Assembly: GCA_963830715.1 (NCBI GenBank) | Contig: CAWHNS010000021.1 | Span: 211,005-275,004 of the forward strand | Source of the DNA: an uncultured delta proteobacterium | GTDB taxonomy: Bacteria > Desulfobacterota > Binatia > Binatales > Binataceae | Reading direction: 5' to 3' | DNA length: 64,000 nucleotides | Part shown: piece after piece, positions 9,432 to 27,817 of the stretch | Layout: each line of letters opens with the position of its first letter | Position numbering within the stretch: position 1 is the first letter of the stretch | Position numbers and translations under genes: made by a program | The notes under the pieces: model-generated | The model's input: only the letters and a program-made list of their open reading frames with translations | Database searches by the model: none | What the model was told of the DNA's origin: nothing

Positions 9432-10580
9432 CTAGGACGACGGCTTCAGGCGGCCGAGCTTCACTCCCAGCGAAAGCTGGTCGCGCACGCCGAGGCGGCG
9501 TTCGCGCACGATCTCGGCGATAATTGCGATCGCGATCTCCTCCGGGGTTTCCGCGCCGATATCGAGGCCGAGCGGCGTGTGAACGCGGTCCAGCAGTTCC
9601 GCAGGGATTCCCTCCTGCCCAAGCCGCTCGAGGGTCGCCCTGGCGCGGCGGCGCGATCCGATCATTCCGACAAAACCGCACGGTTGTTTGAGCGCTGCGC
9701 GCAGCGCGCCTTCGTCGAACGCGTGGCCGCGCGTCACCGCGACGAGGTAGCAATAGGAGTCGAGCTTGAGGCCGTCGATCGCCGATGCGAACGGCTTGAC
9801 GATGATCTCGTCGGCGGTCGGGAAGCGGTCGCGATTGGCGAACGAGGCGCGGTCGTCGATTACCGTCACCTTCAATCCGGCGAGCTTGCCGAGAATCGCC
9901 AGCGGCTGCGCGATATGCCCGGCGCCGGCGATGATGAGACGCATCGCGCCCGCAACCGGATCGAGGAACAGCCGCGGCGCCCCATTCGGCTCGAAGCGCT
10001 TGACTGGTTTGAGACCGCCTGCGCCGTCGAGCTCGAAAAGTCCGGGCGAGGCCTGGCGCGTGCGCTCCGCGAGCTGTTCGAGCGCCGGCGCCGGAATCGC
10101 GATCGGTAGCGCGGGCGCCTCGGCGCCGATCAGCGCCCTCTTAACCACCCCGGCCGGCGCGCCTAGATTTGCGCCGGCCTCCACCACCGTCAGGAGGGCA
10201 GCGGGAATATTGCGTCCCGCCGCCTCGGCCAGCCTGTGCGCCATCGCCAGGTCCTGCGCCGGCGACCACAGATCGATGAACACGTCCATGATTCCGCCGC
10301 ACGTGCCGACTTCGTTCTGATCGAAATCGCCGGTCAGATCGACTTCGGCAATGCGCGCGCCGACGCCTTCTTGAAGTAATACTTCAGCTTTGCGGAAGAC
10401 CTCCGCCTCGCCGCATCCGCCGCCGATAGTCCCGAATTGCCCGTCCTCCCGCACCAGCATCTTCGCGCCGATTTCGCGCGGGGTCGAACCGCGCACGCTG
10501 ATCACGGTCGCCAGGGCGAAGCGCTTGCCGCGCTCCAGCGTGCGAACCGCCTCGGACCAGATTTGTTCCGCTCCCGGCAT
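9432..10580 (-). CDS. XdhC/CoxI family accessory protein
   Basis: N-terminal XdhC_CoxI block (ATVISVRGSTPREIGAKMLV ... GTIGGGCGE) and a C-terminal Rossmann block (IIAGAGHIAQPLA ... VTRGHAFD). ATG at 10580 is preferred over TTG at 10607. Confidence 0.8.
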   Translation of the reverse strand: MPGAEQIWSEAVRTLERGKRFALATVISVRGSTPREIGAKMLVREDGQFGTIGGGCGEAEVFRKAEVLLQEGVGARIAEVDLTGDFDQNEVGTCGGIMDVFIDLWSPAQDLAMAHRLAEAAGRNIPAALLTVVEAGANLGAPAGVVKRALIGAEAPALPIAIPAPALEQLAERTRQASPGLFELDGAGGLKPVKRFEPNGAPRLFLDPVAGAMRLIIAGAGHIAQPLAILGKLAGLKVTVIDDRASFANRDRFPTADEIIVKPFASAIDGLKLDSYCYLVAVTRGHAFDEGALRAALKQPCGFVGMIGSRRRARATLERLGQEGIPAELLDRVHTPLGLDIGAETPEEIAIAIIAEIVRERRLGVRDQLSLGVKLGRLKPSS

Positions 10581-10997: not shown

Positions 10998-12179
<1,182 letters not shown>

Positions 12180-12431: not shown

Positions 12432-12887
12432 CTACTCCTCCTGCGCCTCCAGCAAATCGGCAAGCACCCGCGCGGCGTGATCGCGCGGGTCGACCTGATC
12501 GTAAACGCGCGCGATACGGCCGTCGGCGCCGATCAGGAAGCTGACCCGATCCGCCCGCGCGGCTTTCGGCCCCTCGCAGGCGCCGTACGCGAGCGCCACG
12601 GCGCGATCGGTATCGCTGAGCAGCCGAAAAGAAAAGTTGAATTTGCGCGCGAAGGCGGCGTTGGCCGCCGGCTGGTCAAAACTCACGCCGGCCACCACGA
12701 TGCCGGCGGCGTCGAAGTATTCCTGATGGTCGCGGAAGCCACGCCCCTCCAGCGAGCATCCCGGCGTATCCGCCTCGGGAAAAAACCACAGCAGCACGCT
12801 TTGCCCGCGCATCGCGGCGAGTGCGAAGCTGCCGCCGTCGTGAGCCGGCAGCACGAACTCCGGGGCCTTGTCACCCGCCTTCAGCAT
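12432..12887 (-). CDS. bcp: Peroxiredoxin, Bcp type
   Basis: FFPEADTPGCSLEG active-site motif. 151 aa. Confidence 0.85.
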   Translation of the reverse strand: MLKAGDKAPEFVLPAHDGGSFALAAMRGQSVLLWFFPEADTPGCSLEGRGFRDHQEYFDAAGIVVAGVSFDQPAANAAFARKFNFSFRLLSDTDRAVALAYGACEGPKAARADRVSFLIGADGRIARVYDQVDPRDHAARVLADLLEAQEE

Positions 12888-13021
12888 CTCCCTCCCGATC
12901 CCGCGGCCGGCCTGATATCGGCTTCCAGGCCGCAGGCGCGCAGCGCCAGTCCGGGCCGCGTCCGCCCGGAGCGGCGGCCGGCACTTGCTTCGATATACAC
13001 ATTGACATAAAAGATTACAAG

Positions 13022-14032
13022 ATGGCTATCAGCGCGACAGCTTGGGATTGGGCCGGCAGCGGGACTCCGGGCATGGCGGACCACGCAGAGCGCACGGACC
13101 GCGCGGCACCGGATAATCCCGATAGCGGCGGCGAAGCCGCCGCGCCTTGCGCCTCCATCCAGCCGCTTCACTCCAATGGCGCCGCCAAGCTGCAATCGGC
13201 GCCGTTGCCGGAACCCTCGTGCTCGTCGCTTGCAGCCGAGCCTGACAGCCCCGATGAAGCGATCATAGCGCGGCTGCTTGCCGGGCTGAACCTGCCGCCG
13301 AGGTCGATTCCGGGCGAGTTCGAGCATCCGCTCGCCGACCTGCGCACGGTAATCTCGACCGACTACCGCGAGGCGCCGGGCTTTCCATCGACCGAGCTGG
13401 CCCATGAGCTGCTGAGGGTGGTGGAGAACCTGATCAAGCCCTACGGCTACATCTGGCGATGCTGGCAGGATCGGCAGAACCTGCATCAGCTCAAGCGGGT
13501 TTTCAAATGGGGCGACGTGGTCGTGAACGCGCAACCCTACGTGCAGAACACCGGGCTTTCGCTGTGGGGATTCTCGTGCGAGACCAAGGTCGAGGACCGC
13601 AGCAAGTTCGTGATTTTTCTCAATACCGCACATGAGCCTGGCGCCGTCGCGGCCACCATCGGGCACGAGCTCGGCCACTACGTCTACAACAGCATCGGGG
13701 CCGGCGGGTGCGGCGGCGAGGCCGCGATGGGCAACATATTCGCGCAGCACCTGGCCCAGGAGCAGGAGCTGTTTTCCGACGCGGTCGTGGCGCTCTCGGC
13801 CTACAGCTATCCCGACGTAAGAGAGATTGTCGGGCGCAAAGGGGAAGCCTGCGGCCGCACCGACCCCGGCTTGATCGCGCAACTCCACGCCGCCGCCTCG
13901 GCAATCGATCCGCAGTACCGCATCGATCTGAGCCGCAGCGGGCTGACGGCTTCATGGCGCATCCGATACCTCACCCTGATGATCCACTTCTTCAAGTTGC
14001 GCTGCGCGCTGCTCAACGCCGCCGGCATCTGA
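13022..14032 (+). CDS. ImmA/IrrE-like (HExxH) putative metallopeptidase with a low-complexity N-terminal half
   Basis: HELGHYVYN zinc motif in a DUF955/M78-like context. ATG at 13022 is preferred because the ORF-track N-terminus is Arg/Pro junk overlapping bcp. Confidence 0.5.
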   Translation: MAISATAWDWAGSGTPGMADHAERTDRAAPDNPDSGGEAAAPCASIQPLHSNGAAKLQSAPLPEPSCSSLAAEPDSPDEAIIARLLAGLNLPPRSIPGEFEHPLADLRTVISTDYREAPGFPSTELAHELLRVVENLIKPYGYIWRCWQDRQNLHQLKRVFKWGDVVVNAQPYVQNTGLSLWGFSCETKVEDRSKFVIFLNTAHEPGAVAATIGHELGHYVYNSIGAGGCGGEAAMGNIFAQHLAQEQELFSDAVVALSAYSYPDVREIVGRKGEACGRTDPGLIAQLHAAASAIDPQYRIDLSRSGLTASWRIRYLTLMIHFFKLRCALLNAAGI

Positions 14033-14071
14033 CCCCGGCCGGCCCGGCGCCGGCTGCGACGGGACACTCCG

Positions 14072-15008
14072 CTACTGGCTGAGGGTGCGCAGGATCTGGA
14101 TGACCGCCGGGCCCACGATCACGATCATCATCGCGGGCAGCACGAACAGCACCAGCGGGAACAGGATCTTGACGGTGGTCTTCTGCGCCTGCTCCTCGGC
14201 CCGCAGCCAGCGGCCTGGCGCGCAGGGCTTCCGAACTGGCCCGCAGCGCCGGAGCGATTTGCGCTCCCATCTGCTCGCTCTGAATCAGCATCGCGGCCAG
14301 CGGTTTGATCTCCTCGACCGCGGTGCGATCGGCGAAGGCGCGCAACGCCACTCCCAGCGAGCTGCCCGCCGCCATCTCGCCGGAGACCTCCGCCAGTTCG
14401 CGGCCGATCACCGCGCCCTGGCGACCGACCTCGGTGCCGACCACCCTGATAGCCTCGTGCAGGCCGAGGCCCGCCTCGACGCACACCACCAGCAAATCCA
14501 TCACGTCGGACAGCTCGCGGGCCATGGCCCGCTGCCGCTTGCGCGCGCGGCTACCGACATAGTAGTCGGGAGCGATCGCGCCCGCGGCCCCACCTCCCGC
14601 GATCCACAGCAGGAATGATGTCGATGGCATGCTCAACAGCAACGCCGCGATTCCCCCGACCAGCGCGAGACCTGTCCCGCAGCCCAGCCGAAGCAACTGG
14701 AGGGTCCGGACCGCGCTGGATCGCCGATACCCGGCCTGCATCAGGGTACGGACCGTCTTTCCGACCCTGGGAGTCCCCAGCTTGGGGCTGGGAATCCGCT
14801 TGGTCGCCCACAGCAAAAGCCTACGGCCCATTCGATGCGATTCGCCGGGGCGAAGGTCGAACATTCTGCGCGAGACTCGCGCCTCGGTCGCCAGGTCGTC
14901 AATCCGCTCCTTGAGCGCGCGCTTGTTGGTGGAAACCGCGAGGTAGACGGCTAACGCTGCGGTCCCGACCAGAACGTAGATACTCACTACTATGAACAAC
15001 GATGGCAT
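14072..15008 (-). CDS. tadC: Tad pilus inner-membrane platform protein TadC (T2SS-F family), apparent frameshift near 14200-14222
   Basis: T2SSF core, with the canonical C-terminus [42 protein letters not shown] found by hand in a different frame from the ORF-track tail. The span is 937 nt (3n+1). Confidence 0.8.
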
Positions 15009-15009
15009 A

Positions 15010-15964
15010 TCAGTAGTCCACTCTGAGCAGGTGGCGGATAGTGAACAGCGCCATGATATCCAGGACCACGGCGCTCTCGAGCATTTTTTTTCCGAGCGGA
15101 TCGTGGATGAGATCGTGTGCGTAGCCCGGCTGCACGATGCTGAACGCGACCAGCACGAAGACCGGCAGCAGGCCGACGATTATTCCGCTCATGCGCGACT
15201 GCGCGGTGAGGCCTCTGATCTGGGACTGGATTCGCTGCCGGGCCCTCATGACTTCCGAGAGCTGGCTGACCAGCTGGGACAGGCTGCTTCCGACTTCGGC
15301 CTGGATCTTGATTGCGACCACCAGCAGCCTGAGATCCTCCTGCGGCACCCGCCTGATCATCTCCTCGAAAGCGAGCGCCAGCGGCAGGCCGAGACTGGTC
15401 TGCTCGAGCGCGGTCGCGAACTCGCCGGCAATCGGATCATCGAGTTCCTTGACGACGACCTGGAGGCCTCGTTGGAGCGAATGACCAGCCTCCAGCAAGG
15501 ATTTGATCAGGTCGAGCGCGTAGGGGCAGTTGAGCGGCGAATTTCCTGAGACGGCGCCGCCGCAGCAGGCGTATGTAAGGCACCGGCAATATGGCCGCGC
15601 CCAGGCCGCAGGCAAGCGCCAGCGGCCATGAGTCGAACAAGGTGTCCGCGACGACCTCCGCGATCCCGAACAGCATCACCATCACCAGCAGCATCTCCGA
15701 AACGCGAATGTAAACCCCGGCCTGCCACATGTTCTGCTCGAACCATCGCGTTAAGTCGATCTTTTCCAGTATGCTGCCTTCAAGGCTTGCCGCCTCGGCC
15801 TGGCGTTTGCGCGCCGAGGAATGGTGCTCCGGCTCGCCCGGCTTTGACTTCAGACGCTCCAGCGCTTTGTCAACCCGGCCGCCGCGCGAGACCCGCGCCG
15901 CGATTACCGCGGCGACTGCGATGAGCGCCAGCGACAGGAACTCCTTGACGGCGGTCGAGTCCAT
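15010..15964 (-). CDS. tadB: Tad pilus inner-membrane platform protein TadB (T2SS-F family), apparent frameshift at the G4 run 15523-15526
   Basis: The N-terminal part ends ...RKFAAQLP and the next frame continues [20 protein letters not shown]. Removing one C from CCCC (minus strand) restores QLPYALDL. The span is 955 nt (3n+1). Confidence 0.8.
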
Positions 15965-15967
15965 CGC

Positions 15968-17337
15968 TCAGGCCCCGCTCCGGTAAAGCCGCGGGTCGAT
16001 CCCATAACCCGCGGCTTCGATCCTGGCCGCGTATGCGGACCGAATTCCGGTCGAGCGAAAGTTGCCCAGGACCTTGCCGGTGGGGCTGGTGCTCGACCTG
16101 GACGAACTCGAACAGGTCCTGCATCATCACCACTTCGCCCTCCATCCCGGTGATCTCCGAGATCTTCGTCACCTTGCGCGAACCGTCGGACAAGCGGCTG
16201 AGATGCACGATGACGTTGACCGACGGACGAGATCTGCTGGCGCATCGCGCGCTGGGGAATCGCGTAACCGGACAGCAGCATCATCATTTCGAGCCGTGAC
16301 AGGCATTCCCGCGTGCTGTTGGCGTGGACTGTGCAAATCGAGCCGTCGTGACCGGTGGACATGGCCTGCAACATATCGATCACTTCGGCGCTGCGGACCT
16401 CGCCGACAATGATGCGGTCGGGGCGCATTCGCAGGCAGTTCCTCACCAGGTCGCGCTGGGTGACCTCGCCCTTGCCCTCCAGGTTGGGCGGCCGGGTCTC
16501 GAGCCGCACCACGTGGGGCTGCTGGAGCAGCAGCTCGGCCGAATCCTCGATAGTGACGATCCGCTCGTTCTCCGGAATGAAGCCCGAGAGGCAGTTGAGC
16601 AGGGTGGTCTTTCCGGAACCGGTGCCGCCGCAGACCATCACGTTGAGTCTCGACTTGGTGATCGCGGACAGGACTTCGGCCATCTGGGAAGTGAGCGTGT
16701 CTCTCGCGATCAAATCCTCGATTCGATAGCGATGGGTCCCGAAGCGGCGGATCGACAGCGACGGTCCGTCCAGCGCGAGCGGCGGTATTATCGCGTTGAC
16801 GCGCGACCCGTCCGGCAACCGCGCATCCACCATCGGCGAGGACTCATCGACCCGCCTTCCCACCCGCGACACGATGCGGTCGATGATCAGCATCAGGTGC
16901 TGGTCGTCCTGAAAGACGATCTCGGTCTTCTGCAGCCTGCCCTTTCGTTCCACGTAAACCTGGCCGGGGCCATTGACCAGGATGTCGGTGATGTCGTCGT
17001 CGCAGAGCAGCGGTTCGAGCGGGCCGAGACCCAGCAGTTCGTTCTTGATCTCGTCGATCAGGCGGGCGCGATCCGCGTCGGTCAGGAGCCTTTGCTCTTC
17101 TTTGAGGAGGTCCCCGATGGCGGCAGTGACCTTTGCCGACACGGCGGCCGAATCGACGCTCTGCAGCTGAGCCAGGTCGAGGACCTCGAACAGCTTGGAG
17201 TGCGCCTTGAGCTTGAGCTGGCGAAAGCCGTCGGCGGCGCCGTCCTTCGCCCTTCGCGACGGCGGTGCGGCGATATTTCCCGGAGCCGGCTGGGCGGAGC
17301 GCGGACGGTTGTTGGAAAGGCGATCGAGCAGCTTCAT
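15968..17337 (-). CDS. tadA: Tad pilus ATPase CpaF/TadA, two apparent frameshifts (about 16214-16228 and 16078-16095)
   Basis: Walker [13 protein letters not shown] and [12 protein letters not shown]. It continues in a second frame as [36 protein letters not shown], then in a third frame as [39 protein letters not shown]. The span is 1370 nt (3n+2). Confidence 0.9.
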
Positions 17338-17347
17338 CGATCAAATC

Positions 17348-18592
17348 TCAGTTGCGCGAGATCGCGCCGAGCAGGCGTTCCACGATTCCGCCCCTGCGCG
17401 CCGGAGCCTCTCCGGGGGCGGTTGCCAGCCTCGCGGCGAGCTCCTCGAAGCTGTGGACCAGCGGCGAGCGCGGCGCCACCTGCCACAGGTCGCGCGCGCC
17501 CCACTGAACGCGCTCGAGGTTCTTGTCGTCGCGCGGAATCTGCGCGTAGAGCGAGTGCAGCAGGGTCTGTGAAATCTGCTCGGCGCTGATCGGATGACTG
17601 GCGGTGAACGAGTTGAGGATGAATTCCGGCTCGACCTTGACTTTCAGCCGGCGGAACAAGTCGACAAAGCGCAACGCACAACGCATCGATCCGAGCGACT
17701 GGGTGAGCACGTAAAGCAGATTGTCCGAGCGCTCCCACGCCGCCAGCGAGACCTCGTTCATGCAGCGCCCGCAGTCAACGACCACGTAGTCGAACAGTTG
17801 GCGCATCAACTCCAGCACCGGCGCAAAGATCGCATCGGTGACCAGTTCGCTGTCCTCGATCCGCGTGGGCGCCGCAAGCAGGTAAATCCCCGAGGGATGC
17901 TTGCTGAGCGCGAGTTCGAGCTGGATCGAGTCGAGCTTCTTGGCCGGATCGGTCAGATCGGCGATGGTATGCTGCGGCTCGAGGTTGAGAAAAAGGCCGA
18001 GTCCCCCTTCTTGCAGATCCAGGTCAACCGCAGCCACCCGCTTGTCGAGCGAGTGGCGCAGCGCAAGCGCGAGATTGGCCGCAACCGTGCTGACCCCGAC
18101 GCCACCCACTGTGCTGGTGATCGAGCAGACCACGCCGCGGCCGCCGCGCTCACTGCGCCATCGGGTCTCGCTTACTTTGAGCAGGGCGCGAGTCGTCTCT
18201 GCCCCATTCAGGGGCAGAAACAGCACCTCGTCGGCCCCCGCTCGCAGCACCCGCCTCATAAGCCCTGGCGAGCGGTCCGGCAGCAGCGCGAACAATGCCG
18301 GCCTGGGAGAATGCGCCGCGCGGCTGCGCAGGCGAGCCAGCGGAGGTTCCTCGTCCGCATCGCCGAAGACCACCATCTCGACGTCCGCAGGCGGTCCGCC
18401 GTTGCTCTGATCGTTGAATCCCGGTTCGGCGTCGAGGATCTCCAGCGGCGGGTCCAGCAACGCGGCCAACGCGGCCTTGAGTTCGACGCGCCGATCGGCC
18501 TGAGCGACCACCAGCAGCGCGCGGAGCGGGTTGCGCTGTCCGATTTCCGTCCACGATGCTGGTTTTGTCACTGCTTCTATGGGAGCGGCCAT
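17348..18592 (-). CDS. tadZ: CpaE/TadZ-like pilus localisation protein (REC-like N-terminal domain plus MinD/ParA-like domain)
   Basis: ParA/MinD-fold core with a degenerate P-loop, STVGGVGVST, in which both lysines of KGGxGK[ST]T are replaced. ATG at 18592. Confidence 0.8.
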   Translation of the reverse strand: MAAPIEAVTKPASWTEIGQRNPLRALLVVAQADRRVELKAALAALLDPPLEILDAEPGFNDQSNGGPPADVEMVVFGDADEEPPLARLRSRAAHSPRPALFALLPDRSPGLMRRVLRAGADEVLFLPLNGAETTRALLKVSETRWRSERGGRGVVCSITSTVGGVGVSTVAANLALALRHSLDKRVAAVDLDLQEGGLGLFLNLEPQHTIADLTDPAKKLDSIQLELALSKHPSGIYLLAAPTRIEDSELVTDAIFAPVLELMRQLFDYVVVDCGRCMNEVSLAAWERSDNLLYVLTQSLGSMRCALRFVDLFRRLKVKVEPEFILNSFTASHPISAEQISQTLLHSLYAQIPRDDKNLERVQWGARDLWQVAPRSPLVHSFEELAARLATAPGEAPARRGGIVERLLGAISRN

Positions 18593-18696
18593 CAATGCCG
18601 GTCCGACTCTTGCGCATCAACTCGACCATTCCGGCGTGTTATGGAAAGTGTCCCGCCGGTCGCCTTTGGCATGCGCGCCGACAACCTGGGACCCCG

Positions 18697-20382
18697 CTAG
18701 AATCGCGGCCGACTCGCGTCGGGCGGATTCACCGGTGCGGTGCGCAGTTCTTCGCGCGTCATCGGGCCGCTGGCCGGATACTCCACCTGCCCGCCGTCAG
18801 GGATCGGGCTCACGATCTTCGGCGTCACGGTCATCACGAGTTCGGTCTTCTGGTCCTGGTAGGTGGTATGCCGGAAAAGACTCCCCGCGAACGGGATGTC
18901 GCCGAGATAGGGAACCTTGTCCACCGCGCTGCTGCGATCGCGGAGGATGAGTCCCGCGATGATCAGCGTCTGTTGGTCTTTCATTCGAACCACGGTCTCG
19001 GCGCGTTGCGTTATAAAGGCCGGAACCACAAAGCCGAGCAGTTGGACTCCCTCCGTGAAGTCCGGCTTGGAGACCTCGGGTTTCACCACCAGCTCGATCT
19101 CGTTTTTCCCGATCACGGTCGGCACGAATATCACCGAGGTCCCGAACTGCTTGAACACGATGCTGGTATTCAGGGCTTGCGCGATGATGATCGGGATTTC
19201 GCCGCCGGACAGGAACTTCGCTTCCTCTCCCGAACTGGCCACCAGTTGCGGCTGCGCGAGTACCCGGGCCAGCGAATTGCTCTCCAGGAAATTCAGGAAA
19301 GATTGGGTCTGGAAGCTGGAGCTGCCGGCCGCCAATCCGTAAACCAGGTTGCTGGAGAGCAGCAAGGGAATCAGGCTCCCGGCCTGCGGAAGGATGCCGC
19401 CGGTGGTGTTGGTGCCGCTTCCGTTGAGAACGCTGGTCGGGCTGTAAGGAGAAGCGACGGAGCCTGGCAGGCCCACCAGCGACACGCCATGATTGGCGAG
19501 GGTCGCGGACAGGTCGATGCCCTGCGCTTCCATCCGTGTGCGATCGAGCTCCGCCACCATCACATCCAGCATCACCTGCTGGCGTCCGCCTTGCTCGACC
19601 CGCACCTGGCAATCCTGGTAATCGCCCTGATCGTCCCACACTGCGAGCGTGGTGAAGCCGGGCTTGTGTCCAATCAACATCAGTTGATGGGGATCCATCA
19701 CCTGGACGTCGGCGATCTCGCTGTCCGCGATCGCGATCCGCTTGATCCGTCCTGGAAAATTGAAGACCCGCGAGGTCCCAAAGCTCAGCGATACGGTGTC
19801 CTCGGGCAGGTTGTCGGGACGATGGTGCGAAGGCTCCCCGTCGCGCGTTTCGATCGCAGGCGGATCGGTGGTGAATGTCTGTGCGGCCCCCTGGGCCGGA
19901 CTCACCGGCCCGCTGCCGCGATCGAACGGATCGCTCACGGCCGTCGGAGCGGCTCCGGGATTCAGCGGATGGTCCGGGTCGCTGAGCGCGCGAACGGTGA
20001 AAGTATAGGTCTCGGGATGCCCCTGCGAGATCACGCGGACCGATTGCACGCCCGGATCGGCGCCAAGCACCAGCACCGAGCCGTCCGCCTGTTGGTTCAC
20101 GATCAAGGCATGAGGATTCCTGACCGTGCGGACTTCGGGCAGGCTTGCGGAATCAGCCCCGGTGATCAGATATGTTTCGCCGCGGTTGATGACGATCGAT
20201 TTTTCGGTCGGGACTTCGCCTGCCTGTGCGCGCGCGCAAGCAATCCGGAAAATCACGAGCGCGATCAGCGCAAGTATCGCGGCGGCGTGGCCGCCTGACG
20301 CTTTGCCCCTCGGCGCGGCCCTGCGCGCGGCGCCCGCTTTCATGGAACGGCTTTCCTTTTCGATTTTCAAAGACCGCCTCAT
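18697..20382 (-). CDS. cpaC: Tad pilus secretin CpaC/RcpA
   Basis: Signal peptide, pilus-assembly N-domain and the secretin C-domain motif (VPYLGDIPFAGSLFRHT...ELVMTVTPKIV). The ATG is in an ATGA overlap with the cpaB stop. Confidence 0.85.
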   Translation of the reverse strand: MRRSLKIEKESRSMKAGAARRAAPRGKASGGHAAAILALIALVIFRIACARAQAGEVPTEKSIVINRGETYLITGADSASLPEVRTVRNPHALIVNQQADGSVLVLGADPGVQSVRVISQGHPETYTFTVRALSDPDHPLNPGAAPTAVSDPFDRGSGPVSPAQGAAQTFTTDPPAIETRDGEPSHHRPDNLPEDTVSLSFGTSRVFNFPGRIKRIAIADSEIADVQVMDPHQLMLIGHKPGFTTLAVWDDQGDYQDCQVRVEQGGRQQVMLDVMVAELDRTRMEAQGIDLSATLANHGVSLVGLPGSVASPYSPTSVLNGSGTNTTGGILPQAGSLIPLLLSSNLVYGLAAGSSSFQTQSFLNFLESNSLARVLAQPQLVASSGEEAKFLSGGEIPIIIAQALNTSIVFKQFGTSVIFVPTVIGKNEIELVVKPEVSKPDFTEGVQLLGFVVPAFITQRAETVVRMKDQQTLIIAGLILRDRSSAVDKVPYLGDIPFAGSLFRHTTYQDQKTELVMTVTPKIVSPIPDGGQVEYPASGPMTREELRTAPVNPPDASRPRF

Positions 20383-21269
20383 TGTGATGCGGGAGATGGC
20401 TCCCGGTCGCGCGACAAGCGCCTGGTGCTGGTTCCCTTGACGAACGTAACGATTTCGCGATGCGTTCCATCCCGCACGATCTCCACGTCCATCTGGGCAA
20501 ACGGCGCACCGTGGGCGCGAGCCAGCGGGGACTGGAGCTTCGCGACCGCCATCGGGGCCGTGCTGTCCGGGCGCATCAGGGCGTCGGTATCGACGCCGTT
20601 GGTCGGCACGATTTTGTCGTCCGTGTAGTTGCGCAGCGCCAGCCGCAGCACGCCCTCGTGACCGGCCAGGGCGAGACGCTCCGATTGTTGCGGCGTGACC
20701 AGCAGCGTCACGACCTTGACCAATTGCGGCTCGTCCTTGTCGCCCGCGATCTGCTGGGCAACGGCCAGCACTTCAAGGTTCTGCAACACGACCTTTGAGA
20801 AAGACTTCTGGTTCTGCTCCTGCACCGAGACCAGCACGTCGAGCCGCGCCTGGGGAAGGATAAAGCCGGCGACGTCGCTCACCTCGTCGACCGCCAGCGA
20901 CATCGCACGCATCCCGGCCGGAATCAGCAGCGGCAGAATCCCACCGACCTTTTGGCCCGAATACAGCTTGCTGGTGACGATTGGCTCGTTCTCGACGAAG
21001 CTGTCTTTCACGATGCTGCTCATGAGGCTGGTCTGATCGGTCACCGCGCCGGGCGGCAGGCTCTCGCGCGACCAGCGGGCAAACTTGACCGCGCCGGGTT
21101 CGATTTTCGTTCCGAGCGGCAGGTAACGGGCCGCGACCGCGATCTCCACCGTGCCGAGGGCCGCCTTCCGCAACTCCGCGCGCTGCTTCTCGAGTGCCGA
21201 GTACACCACCACGGCTGCGAGCGTCGCGGCCAGCGCCGCGACCATTCCGAAAACGAACTCGCGTCTCAT
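20379..21269 (-). CDS. cpaB: Flp pilus assembly protein CpaB/RcpC
   Basis: N-terminal TM helix, SAF-like domain (VEIAVAARYLPLGTKIEPGAVKFARW). GGGGAGGG RBS before the ATG. Confidence 0.85.
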   Translation of the reverse strand: MRREFVFGMVAALAATLAAVVVYSALEKQRAELRKAALGTVEIAVAARYLPLGTKIEPGAVKFARWSRESLPPGAVTDQTSLMSSIVKDSFVENEPIVTSKLYSGQKVGGILPLLIPAGMRAMSLAVDEVSDVAGFILPQARLDVLVSVQEQNQKSFSKVVLQNLEVLAVAQQIAGDKDEPQLVKVVTLLVTPQQSERLALAGHEGVLRLALRNYTDDKIVPTNGVDTDALMRPDSTAPMAVAKLQSPLARAHGAPFAQMDVEIVRDGTHREIVTFVKGTSTRRLSRDREPSPASQ

Positions 21270-21379
21270 CCAGCCCTCCCCTTCACCGCCGACTCGTCAC
21301 GGTCAATCTCTTTACCCGCATCGCCGCCGCTTCCCGCGCCGATGAAGATCTCTGCCTCGAAACTACCGCGCGGGGCTTC

Positions 21380-21553
21380 TTACAGGCTGCTTGTTACGTT
21401 GGCTACCGTGTTCACGACGCCGGCGCCCAGGCTGGTGTATGCGGTGTAGACCACAACCGCGATCGCCGCCATTATCAGTGCATACTCAGTCATGGTCTGT
21501 CCGGCGCGATCCCGGCTTTTCGACCATAGCTTCCGCAGAACTGTCATACTCAT
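21380..21553 (-). CDS. flp: Flp family type IVb/c pilin (flp-1), 57 aa, absent from the ORF track
   Basis: Hand translation: MSMTVLRKLWSKSRDRAG/QTMTEYALIMAAIAVVVYTAYTSLGAGVVNTVANVTSSL*. Shows the G/xxxxEY processing motif and a hydrophobic helix. GGAGA RBS. Confidence 0.85.
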   Translation of the reverse strand: MSMTVLRKLWSKSRDRAGQTMTEYALIMAAIAVVVYTAYTSLGAGVVNTVANVTSSL

Positions 21554-21605
21554 TGTCGGTCTCCAGGGATTCTTCCTTCAGCCAATTACCAGCGAGAGAG
21601 ACCCG

Positions 21606-21620
21606 GCAACTGGGCTGCCT
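21606..21620 (-). promoter_or_regulatory. Sigma-54 type -24/-12 promoter upstream of flp-1
   Basis: Minus strand aGGCAg-CCCAG-TTGCc, compared with the consensus TGGCAC-N5-TTGCW. The GG-N10-GC spacing is exact. The -12 element is 52 nt before the ATG. Confidence 0.6.
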
Positions 21621-21696
21621 CTCTCTCGCGCATTCCTCCGCCGCTTCGCGCGCGATGAGTGTCCAGCCCGGTCGCCGGCCATCCGGCTGGCCGCGA

Positions 21697-21864
21697 CTAC
21701 AAACTGGCCGTGACGTTGGCAACGGTGTTGGTAATCGCCCCGCCGAGGGACTTGTACGCCGTGTATACGACGACCGCGATTGCCGCCATAATGAGGGCAT
21801 ACTCAGTCATCGTCTGACCCTTGTGCTCGGTGATTCTGACAAACAATTTTGTGAACATATCCAT
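21697..21864 (-). CDS. flp: Flp family type IVb/c pilin (flp-2), 55 aa, absent from the ORF track
   Basis: Hand translation: MDMFTKLFVRITEHKG/QTMTEYALIMAAIAVVVYTAYKSLGGAITNTVANVTASL*. GAGGAG RBS. Confidence 0.85.
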   Translation of the reverse strand: MDMFTKLFVRITEHKGQTMTEYALIMAAIAVVVYTAYKSLGGAITNTVANVTASL

Positions 21865-21929
21865 TGCTCTTACTCCTCGACGCGCGGTTCACTCGTTCAA
21901 AACCTCATTACGCGCAGAACCAACAAGAG

Positions 21930-21945
21930 GCAGGTCTCGTGCCAG
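21930..21945 (-). promoter_or_regulatory. Sigma-54 type -24/-12 promoter upstream of flp-2
   Basis: Minus strand CTGGCAC-GAGAC-CTGCC (9/10 match to TGGCAC-N5-TTGC). The GG-N10-GC spacing is exact. It lies 65 nt before the ATG. Confidence 0.65.
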
Positions 21946-22105
21946 CCGCTCGTCATGCAAACGCGAGCTGTACTGCGCGCTGAGTGGATTAGTTAGTCAC
22001 GGATGCGGGACTCGTCCCGTCCCACAATGCAACATGACGCATCGGGCCGGGAGCGCACCTGCGGCTTGACGATCGAAGGAGAGGTCTGCGAAGCGCGAAG
22101 CGACT

Positions 22106-22579
22106 CTATTTCTGCGGGATCAAGTGAGCCGGTAGCGGGATCGCTCCGGAATAGCTGCGGCGCGGCTTGAATTCGGCAAGCCAGTCCCAGACATAGTGTT
22201 GGCGGTTCGGCGGGTTCACCCGCGCGAGCACGTTCGCAGCGCAGTTCCCGCATAGCACGATCGCCTGGCGGCCACCGGCCCTGTTGCGTGCCATCGCTAC
22301 CAGCACCTTCTCGCCGAACATCGCGACCGATGCGTTCAGCAGAGGCGCCAGACGCGCGCTCACCACCGCGACCAGGACCTTAGTCCCGTAGAACAGCCAG
22401 TTGCGGTCACCGTTTTCCGCCAGGTCGGACATGGGCGCGGCGAGCAGAAACGCCTCGCCGGCAGGATCGGGCAGGTCAAGGTCCTTCCCACACGCGCCGC
22501 ATCGCGGCAGCGTCAGTTCAAGACCTCGTCCGAGCAGAAAGCATTCCGGCGTCCGCTTGCCGAAGAACCGCGCCAGCAT
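22106..22579 (-). CDS. Unrecognised CxxC...CxxC (Zn-ribbon-like) protein, paralog 2 (~157 aa)
   Basis: Shares EC-FLL..R..E, CGACG, GEKVLV, CGNC, NVLARV and YVWDW with the neighbouring ORF. No TM or signal sequence. The start is uncertain (ATG 22579 or GTG 22615). Confidence 0.55.
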   Translation of the reverse strand: MLARFFGKRTPECFLLGRGLELTLPRCGACGKDLDLPDPAGEAFLLAAPMSDLAENGDRNWLFYGTKVLVAVVSARLAPLLNASVAMFGEKVLVAMARNRAGGRQAIVLCGNCAANVLARVNPPNRQHYVWDWLAEFKPRRSYSGAIPLPAHLIPQK

Positions 22580-22646
22580 CCCACCCGGCCGCCCTTGAGG
22601 AAAGCGACTCTTCACCCCCGGCTTGCGCCCCCTTTTTTGGGCGCGC

Positions 22647-22916
22647 TCAGCCGGGCCGGCCGTTCCTCAGCGGGATAGCCCAGTCCCATACGTAGCGCCG
22701 GCGAGTATCGTCCGACTCGACACGGCTTACGATATTATCTCCGCAGCCGCCACAGAAGAAATAGGTGCGCTGGCCATTGCCCAGCGTCAGCACCATGGCC
22801 TTCTCGCCGATTGGGTTGTTGGTGAAGCCGCGCCCGCATACCGCGCAGCATCCCTGACTTAGAACCTCGACCCGGTTGACTACCAAATACTCGCTGACTT
22901 CAGCGCTTGCGTCCAT
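22647..22916 (-). CDS. Unrecognised CxxC...CxxC (Zn-ribbon-like) protein, paralog 1 (89 aa)
   Basis: ATG at 22916 preceded by GGAGAGGA. Motifs EYLVV, CAVCG, GEKAMV, CGGCG, NIVSRV and YVWDW. Confidence 0.6.
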   Translation of the reverse strand: MDASAEVSEYLVVNRVEVLSQGCCAVCGRGFTNNPIGEKAMVLTLGNGQRTYFFCGGCGDNIVSRVESDDTRRRYVWDWAIPLRNGRPG

Positions 22917-23314
22917 TGGTGTCCTCTCCGTTGCAATTCTCCAAAACATCTCCAACCGGTTCCGCCCGCGCCACAACCGCTCTCGAGACGCGATGTTGCA
23001 GGTTCAGCCGCCTTCAAGCCTCATTGCGCGTGACCGCCGCTCGCTGGCGAGGAGCTCGGGAGTAAGCGGTCATTCGCGGCGGATCGCCACTCGCCGCAGG
23101 CTCGGCCAGCTTCTCCAGATTAACACGCGCCGAGGCTAGCAGACTTCGCCGCTCGGCGACAAACAGGAGCGAAATAGGAACGTCACGGCAAAGCCGGAGT
23201 CGCGGCGGCACGATGGAAATCGGCGCGAATGCCATAGGCGGGACGACCCGGCCTGGGGGCCGCGAAGCCGTGCGCGCCGGGCCGCGCGCAGCCCCGTCGC
23301 CCCCAAAGGGCGGC

Positions 23315-24460
23315 TCAACGCGCGCTGCGGTTGGAACGGACTTCGGCCAGACCGAAGCGGCTGATCATCCTATACACAGTGTAGCGCGAAACTCCTAAAA
23401 GTCGCGCCGCACGGATGCAGTTGCCCTCGGACCTGTCCAGCGCGCGCACCAGCGCTTCCTTCGCCGCCTCGTTGACAGCATGATCCAGCGATAGTGGCGC
23501 CGACTCTCCCTCATCTCCTGCCGGCCGCTGCGGCGCCCCCCCGCGGATAGCGGGGCCGCGCAGATCGCTTGCGCCGGGTGCTGCCTTGACGAGGTAGGCG
23601 GGCAAATTGCCGATGTCAATCCGGTCGCTGTCCGTGAGCAGCATCGCGCTTTCCACCACGTGCGAGAGCTCGCGCACGTTGCCCGGCCAGTCGTAGGCCG
23701 CAAGCGCCTTCATCGCCCCTCGCGAGACGTATTTCACCCGCTTGCTGAGCATCTGGTCGTAGTGCTCGACGTAGTGCGCGGCGAGCGCCTCCACGTCGCT
23801 GCCGCGTTCCCGCAGCGGCGGAATCAGCACCACGCTGGTATTGAGCCGGTAGTAGAGATCGTCGCGGAACTGGCCGGCCTTGACCATTGCGCGCAGATCG
23901 CAGTTGCTCGCCGCGATCAGCCGGATATCCACCAGATGGCTCTGCGAAGAGCCGACCGGCTGCACTTCGCGGGTCTCGACCACTCTGAGCAGCTTGGCCT
24001 GGAGCCGCAGCGGCAGTTCCCCGATCTCGTCGAGGAAAAGCGTGCCGCCGGCGGCGGAGCGGAAGTAGCCGAGCGAGGTCTCCCTCGCGTCGGTGAAGGC
24101 GCCGCGCACGTGGCCAAAGAGCTGGGACTCGGCCAGCGTATCCACCAGGTTCGAGCAGTTGAACGTGACAAACGGGCCTTTGGGCGCGGGCCCCAGCAGA
24201 TGGAGCGCGCGGGCCACCAACTCCTTGCCGGTGCCCGATTCGCCCTGGATGAGCACCGTCGACTTGTGCGGCCCGAGCCGCCCGACGGTCCTGAACAGAT
24301 CGCGCATCGCCTCGCACCGTCCGATCATGGCGCCCAGCCGGGCCGTTCCGGCGCCCAGTCCGGCAACCTCCAGCCATTCGCCACCGCCCTCGGCCTGTTC
24401 TTCCAGCGCGAACAGCGCGTCGTCAGCCGTCCGATCCAGGGAAATTTGCTCTAGGCCCAT
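23315..24460 (-). CDS. Sigma-54-dependent transcriptional activator (EBP2), AAA+ plus Fis-type HTH, no sensor domain
   Basis: GESGTGKE, GAFTDA, FLDEIGELP, WPGNVRE, HTH AARLLGVSRYTVYRMI. About 43 aa precede the AAA+ core. Very similar to EBP1 throughout the AAA+ domain. Confidence 0.9.
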   Translation of the reverse strand: MGLEQISLDRTADDALFALEEQAEGGGEWLEVAGLGAGTARLGAMIGRCEAMRDLFRTVGRLGPHKSTVLIQGESGTGKELVARALHLLGPAPKGPFVTFNCSNLVDTLAESQLFGHVRGAFTDARETSLGYFRSAAGGTLFLDEIGELPLRLQAKLLRVVETREVQPVGSSQSHLVDIRLIAASNCDLRAMVKAGQFRDDLYYRLNTSVVLIPPLRERGSDVEALAAHYVEHYDQMLSKRVKYVSRGAMKALAAYDWPGNVRELSHVVESAMLLTDSDRIDIGNLPAYLVKAAPGASDLRGPAIRGGAPQRPAGDEGESAPLSLDHAVNEAAKEALVRALDRSEGNCIRAARLLGVSRYTVYRMISRFGLAEVRSNRSAR

Positions 24461-24837
24461 CTTCCTACCCCTCCTCGCTTGCCAGCGTACATTTGGTTAT
24501 AAAACCTAATCTACAAGTTGTAGTGGTATGGTTATGGCGGGAAAGGCCGAGAATGTCAAGTGGGGGCGATTCAAGGCCGGCGCAGGGGTCTAAAGAACGG
24601 CGTATTGGGTCCGAATTCGCCTCAATTGGCGGCAATAGCAGGGCTTTTGAGCCGCCTTGATCCCGCCCGGCAGCGCCGCCCTGACCGGCCCGAACGGGCC
24701 CGCCTCAGCCCTACAAAATGTCGGCTGCCGGCGCTCCGCGGGCCGCCGCGCGCACCGCCGGGCTGCGCCTTGAGCGCGACCGTTACGGGGCCGATAATCG
24801 ATGCTTCGCAACACCGGACCGGGCAGGTGATCGAAAT

Positions 24838-25526
24838 ATGGCTTTAAGGCGCGCCGCGTTTCTGTTCGACGTCGACAATACGCTGCTCGACAACGACCGG
24901 GTCACCGCCGACCTCATGCGCCATCTGGCGATGGGGGTGGGGCTCGAAGGACAGCGCCGCTACAGCGAGCTGTTCGAGGACTTGCGCGCGGAACTCGGCT
25001 ACGCCGACTACCTCGGGGCGCTGCAACGCTACCGGGTCGAAAACCCTCACGACTTCGGCATCCTTTCGGTTTCCTCCTTCCTGGTGAACTACCCGTTCGC
25101 CAACCGGCTCTTCCCCGGCTCGCTCGACGCGGTCGAGTCCTGCCGCCCGCTGGGCGAAACGATAATCGTCTCGGACGGCGACGTGGTGTTTCAGCCGCTC
25201 AAGATCGAACGATCGGGCCTGATGGAGGCCTTCGAGCGCAAGGTGCTGATCTACATCCACAAGGAAAAGGAACTCGACGATCTCGCCGAGCGCCACCCCG
25301 CCGACCACTATGTCTTCATCGACGACAAGGTGCGGATTCTTGCGGCGGTCAAAAGAGTGTGGGGCCGCGCGTCACCACTGTCTTCCCGGTCCAGGGGCAC
25401 TATGCGCGCGATCAGAAGGAAATCGCGATGTACCAGCGGCCTGACGTCACGATTGAGCGGATCGGCGTGCTGGCGGATTTGGACCTTCCCAGCCTGATTC
25501 GAGCCGGGCCTGCCGGTAGCGATTGA
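24838..25526 (+). CDS. HAD-superfamily hydrolase, apparent frameshift near 25361-25372
   Basis: DVDNTLLDND motif I and SDGDVVFQ. The C-terminus VTTVFPVQGHYARDQKEIAMYQRPDVTIERIGVLADL... reads in the adjacent frame. The span is 689 nt (3n+2). Confidence 0.7.
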
Positions 25527-25626
25527 AGCCGGGTCGTCGCGGCGGCGGCACTGACCGGGCCTCGAAGCCCATTTCGGTACGATCTTCCATGGGCCGGCAA
25601 GGCGACCCGAAAGCGCATGGAATCCG

Positions 25627-25654
25627 TTGTCAAAGTACCCCAGGAGTGTACTAA
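25627..25654 (+). promoter_or_regulatory. Candidate sigma-70 promoter (TTGTCA-N16-TACTAA), copy 1
   Basis: TTGTCAAAGTACCCCAGGAGTGTACTAAGGT is nearly identical to the sequence at 26169-26196, which lies in front of the paralogous lipoprotein gene. Confidence 0.45.
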
Positions 25655-25705
25655 GGTACGTTCTCGCATGTTCCGGACCGGTGCGACTCGGAGGGAGAAC
25701 TTTCG

Positions 25706-26071
25706 ATGAAACGGCGTCGTCCTGGATTTTCTTCCGCCGCGGGTTTGAGCCTCGCGATGCTGGTGGTTGTCGCGGCTGTGTCTGGGTGCACCACCCAGCG
25801 CCGCGAAATCGGATGGTGCACGGTAGGCGGCGGCGTCGCCGGTGCCCTCGTCGGGGGAGCAATTGGCATCGGCATCGGGGGCCGCGAAGGAGTGGCTAAC
25901 GGGAACTCACATGACAATTCAACAACCACGGCAGTAATAGCGGACACCGCCGGAGTCGTGGGTGGTTTGGCTCTGGGGGCCGTCATCGGCCACTACGCAT
26001 GCGATCCGATTATCCATCCTCCGCCTCCGCCTCCCACCCCCGGGGCTTCATCGCCGATGGACAATCCCTAG
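25706..26071 (+). CDS. Lipoprotein with glycine-zipper segments, ending in a short poly-Pro tail
   Basis: Lipobox AVSGC, GGVAGALVGGAIGIGIGG and VVGGLALGAVIG. GGAGGGAG RBS. Confidence 0.65.
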   Translation: MKRRRPGFSSAAGLSLAMLVVVAAVSGCTTQRREIGWCTVGGGVAGALVGGAIGIGIGGREGVANGNSHDNSTTTAVIADTAGVVGGLALGAVIGHYACDPIIHPPPPPPTPGASSPMDNP

Positions 26072-26168
26072 CCGTGTGGGTGGGAATTCGCGAGGCCCGG
26101 GTTTCTTAACATCTTGTAGCGAAAGTCTTTTGTCGAAGTAGAAGGCGGAATTCGGCTGGTTCCGGGAG

Positions 26169-26196
26169 TTGTCAAATTACCCCCGGAATGTACTAA
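26169..26196 (+). promoter_or_regulatory. Candidate sigma-70 promoter (TTGTCA-N16-TACTAA), copy 2
   Basis: TTGTCAAATTACCCCCGGAATGTACTAAGGT. Same spacing and hexamers as copy 1. Confidence 0.45.
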
Positions 26197-26253
26197 GGTT
26201 CCTGCTCTCACCCTCGTTTGGATGGGGGCGAGCGATTCGGAGGAAGCACAGCA

Positions 26254-26931
26254 ATGACCAGGCGGCCAAAGTGGCTGGGTTCGGTATGCCTGACGGCCCT
26301 TCTATTGGCTTCGGGATGCGCCGCGCCTCCCAAGCGGATTCTGGCCGGCGCCGCAGTGGGCACAGTGGGCGGAGCGGCCATCGGCTGCGCTACCGCGGCC
26401 TTCATCGACGACGACGATCCGACCACCTACGCGATCGGATGCACCAGCGGCGCGGCCGCCGGGGCTCTGCTTGGTGCGTTGGCCGCGAATGCGACCTATC
26501 ACGCTCCGCCGCCGCCTCCTCCTCCCCCGCCGCCACCGCCACCACCGCCTCCGCCGACGGTCATCGTTGCCAAGCCCGCCCGCGAAAAAATCGTGCTGCG
26601 TGGAGTGCACTTCGATTTCGACAAGTCCATCATTCGCCCCGAAGATCAGCCGGTGCTTGACGAGGCCGCCGAAATCCTCAAGCGCCATCGGCAGATCACG
26701 ATCTACGTCGATGGATACTGCGACATACGCGGAAGCGAGGAGTACAACCTAAAGTTGTCTCAACGGCGCTCGGCGGCGGTGGTGGCTTATTTGGAGGACG
26801 CTGGCGTCTCGGCGGCGCGCATGATTCCGCGCGGCTTCGGCAAAACCAACTTCGTGGCCTCCAATGACACCGACGAGGGACGCGCGCAGAACCGCCGCGT
26901 CGAGTTGCTCCCGGTCGGAGCGGGACCGTGA
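26254..26931 (+). CDS. OmpA-family lipoprotein (glycine zipper, 17-residue poly-Pro linker, OmpA C-terminal domain)
   Basis: Lipobox LLASGC, a P17 run, and OmpA_C motifs (GVHFDFDKS, GYCDIRGSEEYNLKLSQRRSAAV, NRRVEL). ATG at 26254 with GGAGGAAG RBS. Confidence 0.85.
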   Translation: MTRRPKWLGSVCLTALLLASGCAAPPKRILAGAAVGTVGGAAIGCATAAFIDDDDPTTYAIGCTSGAAAGALLGALAANATYHAPPPPPPPPPPPPPPPPPTVIVAKPAREKIVLRGVHFDFDKSIIRPEDQPVLDEAAEILKRHRQITIYVDGYCDIRGSEEYNLKLSQRRSAAVVAYLEDAGVSAARMIPRGFGKTNFVASNDTDEGRAQNRRVELLPVGAGP

Positions 26932-26974
26932 GCCCGGCGCCGCAAAACATCGCCTTCGGGGGTTCGTGAGCCCG

Positions 26975-27817
26975 ATGCAACTCGCAAGAGCCGGCGCGAT
27001 CAAGCTTGAGTTCGAAGCCCGTGGAGCGGGTGAGGCGCTGGTCCTTATCCACGGCAGCGTCATTGCGGACTCGTACGTTCCGATAATGGGCGAGCCGCCG
27101 CTGTCGCATTTTCGGTTGATCAGGTACCGCCGCCGCGGCTATGGCGGCAGCACGCATTCCGCGCCGCCGGTCAGCATCCGCGATCAGGCCGCCGACTGCA
27201 TGGCCCTGATGCGTCACCTGGGTGTCGAGCGGGCACATGTGGCCGGTCATTCATATGGCGGCGCAATCGCCATTCAACTCGCGCTTGACTTCCCAAGGGC
27301 GGTGCACTCGCTGATGCTGCTGGAGCCGGCGCTGGTGTTCAAAGTGCCCGCCAGCGCGCGATTGTCGGAACAGATGCTGCCGATGAGAGTCAAGTATGAG
27401 TGCGGCGACAGGACCGGCGCACTCGAGCATTTCATGGAGGTCGTGGAAGGACCCGCGTGGCGCAACGCGGCTGACGCGGTTGCGGGCGCCTGGCAGATGG
27501 CGGTCGCGGACGCCGACAATTTTTTCCAGATCGAGGGCGCGGCGTTGCTCGAATGGAGCTTCGGTCCCGACGATGCCCGCCGGATCAAGCAGCCCATCCT
27601 GGCCGTAGTCGGGGCCGATACCGCAGCCGTGTTCCGTGAGACTCACGAACTCACGCTGTCATGGTTTCCGAAAGCCGAGCCGGTAGTGATTCCCGGCGCG
27701 ACGCATATGCTCCCTTTGGTACAACCTCGCGCGGTGGCGCTGGCGCTTTCCGACTTCATGGCCCGGCACCCGATCGCCGCCGAGCGGGTCAATCCGGTCG
27801 GGAACGATCTCGCCTAA
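26975..27817 (+). CDS. Alpha/beta hydrolase
   Basis: LVLIHGS and the GHSYGG nucleophile elbow. ATG at 26975. Confidence 0.8.
   Translation: MQLARAGAIKLEFEARGAGEALVLIHGSVIADSYVPIMGEPPLSHFRLIRYRRRGYGGSTHSAPPVSIRDQAADCMALMRHLGVERAHVAGHSYGGAIAIQLALDFPRAVHSLMLLEPALVFKVPASARLSEQMLPMRVKYECGDRTGALEHFMEVVEGPAWRNAADAVAGAWQMAVADADNFFQIEGAALLEWSFGPDDARRIKQPILAVVGADTAAVFRETHELTLSWFPKAEPVVIPGATHMLPLVQPRAVALALSDFMARHPIAAERVNPVGNDLA

Follow-up and report, generated by a model that had tools for sequence, protein, structure and literature searches.

The stretch analysed here (the window) comprises 64,000 nucleotides (nt) of an uncultured delta proteobacterium of the Binataceae (positions 211,005 to 275,004 of contig CAWHNS010000021.1, assembly GCA_963830715.1) and carries on its minus strand two small neighbouring genes, which we designate P1 and P2, located between the gene of a sigma-54 activator and the pilin genes of a Tad pilus cluster. 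A preliminary description of this DNA had pointed to two open reading frames (ORFs) on the same strand within 22106-22976, and both were found there on the minus strand: P1 at 22647-22949 in a long form and at 22647-22916 in a short form, supported by its ORF, its homologues, conserved cysteines, the substitution pattern, an MFW(R/K) start and an AlphaFold model, and P2 at 22106-22579, a 157-aa paralogue of P1 with an N-terminal CxxC pair, an additional stretch devoid of cysteines and a C-terminal half homologous to that of P1. All motifs read from the two products were verified, EYLVVNRVEVL, CAVCG, GEKAMV, CGGCG, NIVSRV and YVWDW in P1 and ECFLLGRGLEL, CGACG, GEKVLV, CGNC, NVLARV and YVWDW in P2. 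The GC content at third codon positions is 0.73 and 0.78 for the two ORFs, in a window of 64% GC. Comparison with seven orthologues gave ratios of nonsynonymous to synonymous substitution (dN/dS) of 0.07-0.24 for P1 and 0.2-0.56 for P2, and products of 89 and 157 aa are present, nameless, in public gene calls. Together, the data indicate that P1 and P2 are real genes under purifying selection.

On the 5' side of P1 lies EBP1 (23315-24460, minus strand), which encodes a sigma-54-dependent enhancer-binding protein (EBP) composed, according to Pfam, of a Sigma54_activat AAA+ domain (aa 45-209), an AAA lid and HTH_8. Only ~44 aa precede the AAA+ domain and Pfam places no other N-terminal domain in this protein, in agreement with the view that the activator upstream of P1 is sensor-less; P1 and P2 are encoded beside an EBP that has no cis regulatory domain. 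On the 3' side of P2 two Flp/Fap pilin genes (Pfam PF04964) follow on the minus strand, flp1 at 21697-21864 and flp2 at 21380-21553. A predicted -24/-12 promoter of the sigma-54 type (TGGCACGAGACCTGCC, 21929-21944, minus strand) begins the approach to flp1, 65 nt upstream of this gene and 162 nt beyond the stop codon of P2; a weaker sigma-54-like site (AGGCAGCCCAGTTGCC, 21605-21620, minus strand) lies 52 nt upstream of flp2. The element at flp1 has the GG at -24 and the GC at -12 with canonical spacing, and it is conserved as TGGCACGGGACCTGCC at the same place upstream of flp in a related locus (L012), in which other upstream blocks are kept as well. The sigma-54-type promoters announced before both flp genes are thus present, a good one at flp1 and a weaker one at flp2. 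No -24/-12 site was found between the EBP gene and P1, either in the window or in the orthologues. We therefore rejected the explanation that P1-P2 are simply a target of the EBP.

P1-P2 have conserved upstream blocks of their own. Within the 400 bp that separate the EBP gene from P1, the blocks kept among orthologues (alignment A2) include TTGTCG-N17/18-TAGCCT at 23130-23165 (minus strand), which resembles a weak sigma-70 -35/-10 pair. A stricter scan of the region for sigma-70 promoters and terminators called no promoter, and terminators only at chance level.

The start of P1 had been placed at ATG 22916, which yields the short form of 89 aa and is preceded by a Shine-Dalgarno sequence (GGAGAGGA, 22922-22929). 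However, immediately 5' of this annotated start, an ATG-TTY-TGG-AGA-AT block is invariant among orthologues and in frame with P1. Of 52 non-redundant P1-type genes, 31 carry an in-frame [ATG/GTG/TTG]-TTY-TGG-(AGA/CGN/AGG/AAR) positioned 11-16 codons before the second Met; in genes with this block the second Met has its own strong Shine-Dalgarno sequence and is the start that public gene calls choose. Since variation within the block is limited to the three start codons, synonymous Phe changes and Arg/Lys exchanges, translation of P1 probably begins with MFW(R/K) at ATG 22949, 11 codons upstream of the position first proposed, and gives the long form of 100 aa with the N-terminus MFWRIATERTP-MDAS. 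Use of both start codons is possible.

P1 and P2 had been described as paralogues, and for the C-terminal halves (GEK...CxxC...YVWDW) this was substantiated both by BLASTP (E=1e-9) and by profile-profile comparison of the P1 and P2 families with hhalign (97.4% probability, E=1e-11, 53 columns). In the N-terminal halves, consisting of a hydrophobic hairpin and a CxxC, the likeness is visible without statistical backing. The N-terminal half of P1 is aligned by MAFFT and HMMER to two separate parts of P2, which suggests that the additional segment of P2 is a partial repeat of this half that carries no Cys. The insertion reported for P2 is present, but its length is ~48 aa and not ~60 aa. Four cysteines in two CxxC pairs (C35, C38, C66 and C69 in the numbering of the long form) are invariant in alignment A6 of the P1 family, and C66 and C69 are invariant in alignment A5 also; across the P1 family all four vary hardly or not at all. 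Among P2 proteins the second pair never varies, and every full-length member has the first. An AlphaFold model of P1 based on a 46-sequence alignment reached a mean predicted local distance difference test score (pLDDT) of 77, with 74-93 over residues 20-97. In this model, a beta-hairpin (20-31) leads to the first CxxC, the last strand of a second hairpin (61-66) ends in the second CxxC, where a helix (67-74) begins, and the final strand carries YxWDW. The conserved Cys4 set is what had led to the proposal of a zinc ribbon, and P1 and P2 would by this token bind zinc, but in the predicted structure the geometry at the second CxxC looks treble-clef-like rather than that of a classical ribbon. 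The motifs LxVNR, GEK and YxWDWxxPLR as well as the extra C-terminal strand are specific to the family. Hydropathy, with no dedicated predictor run, disclosed no clear signal peptide or transmembrane segment in either protein, as claimed before; yet P2 has one moderately hydrophobic stretch at residues 68-86 (Kyte-Doolittle 19-residue mean of 1.79), which contains a conserved Arg and a conserved Asp/Asn and is probably not a transmembrane helix.

Neither protein could be assigned to a recognized family in the preliminary description, and sequence-profile and structure searches gave the same result. P1 and P2 had no match in Pfam or NCBIfam at E values up to 10, so that they belong neither to the Tad families nor to the known EBP partners PspA, HrpV and HrpG by these models. 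Profile searches of PDB sequences with both family alignments returned nothing significant, as did PADLOC for P1, P2 and the fusion proteins tested, and the fusion proteins of the family gave nothing above threshold in Pfam/NCBIfam scans. A Foldseek search of the P1 model against PDB and BFVD found no significant neighbour (best E 0.14-0.25, template modelling score <0.4), the weak matches being ZZ, RING and small archaeal zinc-ribbon proteins. An earlier AlphaFold run on a shallow mixed alignment reached a pLDDT of 64 and was set aside, its Foldseek matches being meaningless. Literature searches on Binatota pili and on sigma-54/EBP control of tad loci likewise turned up no description of these proteins. 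Joint Genome Institute (JGI) pipelines name some members "RNA-binding Zn-ribbon protein involved in translation" (DUF1610). We rejected this identity: there was no Pfam match above threshold, PDB chain 6skf_Az was matched at E=2.2, and Foldseek gave E values of 0.48-1.5 with TMq ~0.3. Small zinc-ribbon and treble-clef domains such as DUF1610, ZZ and RING resemble the P family in carrying two CxxC pairs on a small beta-rich scaffold, but all matches to them are non-significant (E of at least 0.1, template modelling score <0.35) and lack the family-specific motifs and strand. We conclude that the P1/P2 family is undescribed and that the predicted P1 fold is without a structural neighbour.

The family is also taxonomically narrow. 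An exhaustive hidden Markov model search of 1.84 billion protein cluster representatives found 74 clusters at E <= 1e-3, and all 42 loci recovered from one-genome-per-species GTDB contigs belong to metagenome-assembled genomes labelled "Candidatus Binataceae", "uncultured delta proteobacterium" or "Deltaproteobacteria bacterium". A scan of 2.9 million viral contigs revealed no relatives. The family has so far been confined to uncultured Binataceae-type genomes, in which it is often multi-copy, with two to four loci per genome. A few members have unusual architectures: the P domain is joined to a partial PadR winged helix in P0048, follows an alpha/beta hydrolase in P0059 and follows an N-terminal double zinc ribbon in P0067, P0075, P0086, P0107 and P0120, and the long P2-like proteins P0056, P0069, P0072-74, P0081 and P0090 share a conserved C-terminal RVRAYFFARD...C..REM.IRALR region to which no Pfam model corresponds.

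In about half of the loci P1 and P2 form tandem pairs in this order, and the remainder are solo P1-like genes with occasional arrays (L046, L030). The loci closest to the window (subfamily I, P1 at least 65% identical; L001-3, L006-14 and L018 together with the window, ~8 distinct genomes) keep the order EBP-P1-P2 in every locus of the closest orthologue clade, 14 orthologous loci besides the window, and this trio is confined to subfamily I. Its outer context varies, with an integrase and a transposase in L006, type I restriction-modification in L008 and ftsZ in L018; the usual order in relatives is EBP-P1-P2 converging on (HAD), TetR and DUF1329 genes. In subfamily II (~60% identical; L017, L019, L026 and L137-139), P1-P2 are followed immediately by a hybrid histidine kinase gene, and on their 5' side stand an ASH/DUF1573 surface-protein gene and a tadG-tadE-tadE cluster (L137 3429-5708, L019 6433-6891, L026 8024-9731). 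A solo paralogue (72% identical; L015 and L140) is divergent from the gene of a kinase with a double zinc ribbon (DZR), a Ser/Thr kinase domain and Sel1 repeats, and such a gene is also found near the EBP-P1-P2 trio in L018. The three subfamilies closest to P1 (60-72% identity) thus each adjoin a different signalling gene, which encodes the sensor-less EBP in one, a hybrid histidine kinase in another and a Ser/Thr kinase in the third, and a single genome can hold the three kinds of paralogue together. More distant subfamilies adjoin genes for DUF1329, an MFS transporter, an amine oxidase with HTH_17, a luciferase-like monooxygenase, aconitase, GST and ADH/PhyH.

All loci were scanned for sigma-54-like sites with an ad hoc weighted consensus at a threshold of at least 19. 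Sites pointing away from the P genes were found downstream on the same strand in 8 of 47 loci and upstream in divergent orientation in 7 of 47, compared with 2.3% of random 720-nt windows in either case. Likewise, 4 of 20 genes directly downstream of a P gene have such a site, versus 3 among the 338 remaining genes of these loci. The flanking sites are positionally conserved within ~5 independent lineages: before flp in the window; between P1 and HTH_17/amine oxidase (TGGCATGCTTATCGCT); between P2 and an MFS gene (AGGCACGGCGGTTGCT); 95 nt upstream of the gene of a secreted beta-helix/ASH protein (CGGCACGAAACTCGCT); and in L036. In view of the ad hoc matrix and the non-independence of orthologous loci, we regard the enrichment of putative sigma-54 promoters beside P genes as suggestive rather than conclusive. 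In L020, sites at 9492-9507 and 7177-7192 (minus strand), which recur in L021-L025, precede a gene for a secreted beta-helix/ASH-domain protein of 691 aa and one for a secreted-looking protein of 147 aa, and both of these putative secreted-protein genes are divergent from the P1-P2-DUF1329 unit.

The remaining genes of the window that bear on the pilus were assigned by Pfam. The minus-strand order is EBP1, P1, P2, flp1, flp2, cpaB, cpaC, cpaE, cpaF, tadB, tadC, in which the Tad pilus core spans 14013-21269 and consists of cpaB/rcpC (20379-21269), the secretin gene cpaC (18697-20382), cpaE/tadZ (17348-18595), the ATPase gene cpaF (15904-17337), tadB (15010-15615) and tadC (14013-15008). The tadB gene seems to be broken up into two ORFs (15437-15964 and 15010-15615, minus strand) that overlap and differ in frame, the T2SSF domain being encoded in the second alone. 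A frameshift is the probable cause, whether the gene is a true pseudogene or the assembly contains an indel. No TadE-like gene was detected in the window by tblastn. Because relatives keep tadG-tadE-tadE in the separate locus with P1-P2 and the hybrid kinase, the Tad system of this lineage appears to be split over at least two loci. Beyond an AhpC gene at the far end of the tad cluster, the minus strand encodes EBP2 (10998-12179), a second sensor-less sigma-54 activator by Pfam, 57% identical to EBP1. Both EBPs and all their orthologues carry GAFTDA in place of the canonical GAFTGA of the sigma-54-contact loop, a substitution too common to serve as a lead, since 14 of 59 unrelated metagenomic EBPs carry it too. 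Between tadC and the AhpC gene, on the strand opposite to tad, an ORF at 12821-14032 (plus strand) has an HELGH motif and a weak match to Peptidase_M78/IrrE-like proteins (E=0.0017, below the Pfam cut-off), and at 26218-26931 (plus strand) an OmpA-family protein is encoded with a glycine-zipper region and a run of 17 consecutive prolines. An Rfam scan of 21000-24700 detected no RNA family.

Small partner proteins are known to control sensor-less EBPs in trans, PspA acting on PspF and HrpV/HrpG on HrpS, and P1 and P2 had been proposed as candidates for such modulators. According to the interpretation we favour, to which we give a probability of roughly 0.4, P1 and P2 are cytoplasmic Cys4 partners of signalling proteins, in this locus of the sensor-less EBP1 driving the sigma-54 flp promoters. 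The two co-oriented and probably co-transcribed genes would encode small cytoplasmic paralogues, each with a Cys4 metal site and a C-terminal Y-x-W-D-W strand, that serve as protein-binding adaptors or modulators of signal-transduction proteins controlling sigma-54-dependent genes. The pair would act in trans on EBP1, and possibly also on EBP2, and so gate the output of the sigma-54-type promoters that precede flp in the Tad cluster, in a mode analogous to that of PspA over PspF and of HrpV/HrpG over HrpS. The pairing of P1 with P2, the contact with an EBP, the sign of the regulation and the function of EBP1 as flp activator are parts of this scheme that we infer. The locus resembles Psp and Hrp in that a sigma-54 activator without N-terminal regulatory domain is encoded beside small non-enzymatic proteins; their number, two, recalls HrpV/HrpG, and the presence of two related sensor-less EBPs recalls HrpR/HrpS. 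Unlike the Psp and Hrp partners, to which they have no relation in sequence or fold, P1 and P2 each carry a Cys4 set and are mutually paralogous, and the wider P family also occurs where no EBP gene is near. In Desulfovibrio vulgaris, the sigma-54-dependent regulator DVU2114 controls Flp-type pilin and tad-like genes (PMC3333781). That system shares with the window a sigma-54-type promoter before Flp pilin genes and an EBP encoded nearby; it differs in that DVU2114 is described as a two-component response regulator (PMC3333781), whereas neither a receiver nor any other sensor domain is present in EBP1 and EBP2, and in that no pair of small proteins is reported there.

The idea of a partner protein is favoured by the conserved trio, by the lack of a sigma-54 site before P1, by the signalling genes that recur beside three sister subfamilies and by the enrichment of promoters. 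It is weakened by the inversion that made the adjacency to flp and by the many members that have neither an EBP nor a Tad neighbour. Compared by blastn, 22160-27738 of the window is inverted relative to 2961-10779 of L012 while both flanks are collinear, a 5.6-kb inversion that carries P2, P1, EBP1, a HAD hydrolase gene, an OmpA-like gene and an alpha/beta hydrolase gene and has one of its breakpoints between the P2 stop codon and the flp1 promoter. The tad core adjoins P1-P2 only in the window; in L012, the one relative that has the core nearby, it is 6 kb away and divergent. That the two genes stand between an EBP gene and flp, as the preliminary description emphasized, is therefore true of the window, but their position next to flp is derived and specific to this genome. 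Further points also weigh against the EBP-partner interpretation. Most orthologous loci have no tad gene within the fetched flanks of up to 10 kb, so that of the conserved synteny with EBP and tad genes that had been sought, the EBP part holds throughout the closest clade and the tad part was observed in the window and L012. Solo P1-like genes that have metabolic neighbours and lack an EBP within 10 kb make up about half of the family. The genomes with orthologous loci are rather closely related (EBP 77-80% identical), and conservation of the trio may for this reason be in part plain synteny. When metagenome contigs were scanned with EBP1 to see if its orthologues are regularly followed by P1-P2, almost only generic EBPs (~40% identity) were obtained, and the one closer match ends at a contig edge. 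The matrix of the sigma-54 scan was self-made and applied to non-independent orthologous loci, and the known EBP partners PspA and HrpV are unrelated in sequence to P1 and P2 and are not zinc proteins.

Among the alternatives, the one that survives best, possible although we consider it rather doubtful, is that P1 and P2 are lineage-specific small zinc proteins unrelated to EBPs, sigma-54 or Tad, which bind nucleic acid, act as a redox or metal switch or are chaperone-like, and whose neighbours reflect inherited synteny and the inversion. The multiple copies and the diversity of their contexts (amine oxidase, luciferase-like monooxygenase, aconitase, MFS, GST, DUF1329, ADH, PhyH) speak for this, and the derived position beside flp, the shortage of tad genes at orthologous loci and the generic "RNA-binding Zn-ribbon" label given by JGI to some members point in the same direction. 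However, signalling genes recur beside the three closest subfamilies, flanking sigma-54-like promoters are enriched over the local background, and the archaeal zinc-ribbon ribosomal protein to which the JGI label goes back is not significantly similar to the family.

Quite unlikely in our judgement is a role of P1-like proteins as local DNA-binding transcription factors or co-factors that would attach close to the neighbouring sigma-54 promoters, for instance to upstream activating sequences, instead of to an EBP. In several lineages P genes stand just upstream of sigma-54-like promoters without a nearby EBP gene, P2 is basic (predicted isoelectric point of 9.5), one member contains a fused PadR-type winged-helix fragment, and in one subfamily P1 is followed by HTH_17 genes; yet P1 is near neutral (predicted isoelectric point of 7.6), the searches brought up no known DNA-binding fold, the fusion with PadR is represented by just one metagenomic protein, and no repeated operator-like motif common to the loci was identified.

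ZitP of Caulobacter crescentus is a zinc-finger protein that directs CpaM and the biogenesis of the Tad/Cpa pilus; it is a membrane protein with a zinc finger of the MJ0042 type and a DUF3426 domain. P1 and P2 would share with it a small CxxC...CxxC zinc-finger make-up and a functional tie to a Tad-type pilus, and their having a part in pilus assembly or pilin handling rather than in transcription had been offered as the other option from the outset. Neighbourhoods lend support to it in two subfamilies, by the flp-cpa core near P1-P2 in the window and in L012 and by tadG-tadE-tadE in L019, L026 and L137-139; L046, too, has an flp gene at a distance of 4 kb from its P1 array. On the other hand, most members are far from any Tad gene, P1 and P2 match, in Pfam scans, no Tad family, no zinc finger of the ZitP type and no zinc-ribbon model above threshold, they have, by hydropathy, no clear signal peptide or transmembrane segment, and their genes form no part of the flp-tadC transcription units, since the promoter of flp lies in between. 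We regard an accessory function in the Tad pilus as improbable.

A selfish or defence-type two-gene module, such as a toxin-antitoxin pair spreading to many sites, is very improbable, for although P1-P2 form a small two-gene cassette of which a genome can hold several copies, in differing surroundings and at times close to genes for integrase, transposase or restriction-modification, the two proteins are paralogous to each other, solo copies are common, PADLOC and the viral contigs yielded no match or relative, and P1 shows strong purifying selection and stable synteny.

The proposal that P1 and P2 are trans-acting modulators of an EBP stands, in sum, on the conserved trio, the signalling neighbours and the sigma-54 enrichment, and is held back by the inversion and by the many members that have no such neighbours. 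In a broader and unlikely form it would make the new Cys4 family a set of diversifying trans-acting connectors in Binataceae, each paralogue coupling a particular signalling protein to particular sigma-54 promoters and supplying the input to sensor-less EBPs, with control of the Tad pilus as the outcome at this locus. Even if the regulatory interpretation is wrong, an undescribed family has been defined, the probable start codon of P1 revised and the adjacency to flp traced to an inversion. The route by which sensor-less EBPs receive their input is established in only a few systems (Psp, Hrp). If the interpretation is true, a lineage-specific and expanding family of small zinc proteins would represent a third, unrelated solution to this problem, and would provide a handle on the regulation of adhesive pili and other surface proteins in an abundant uncultured soil phylum.

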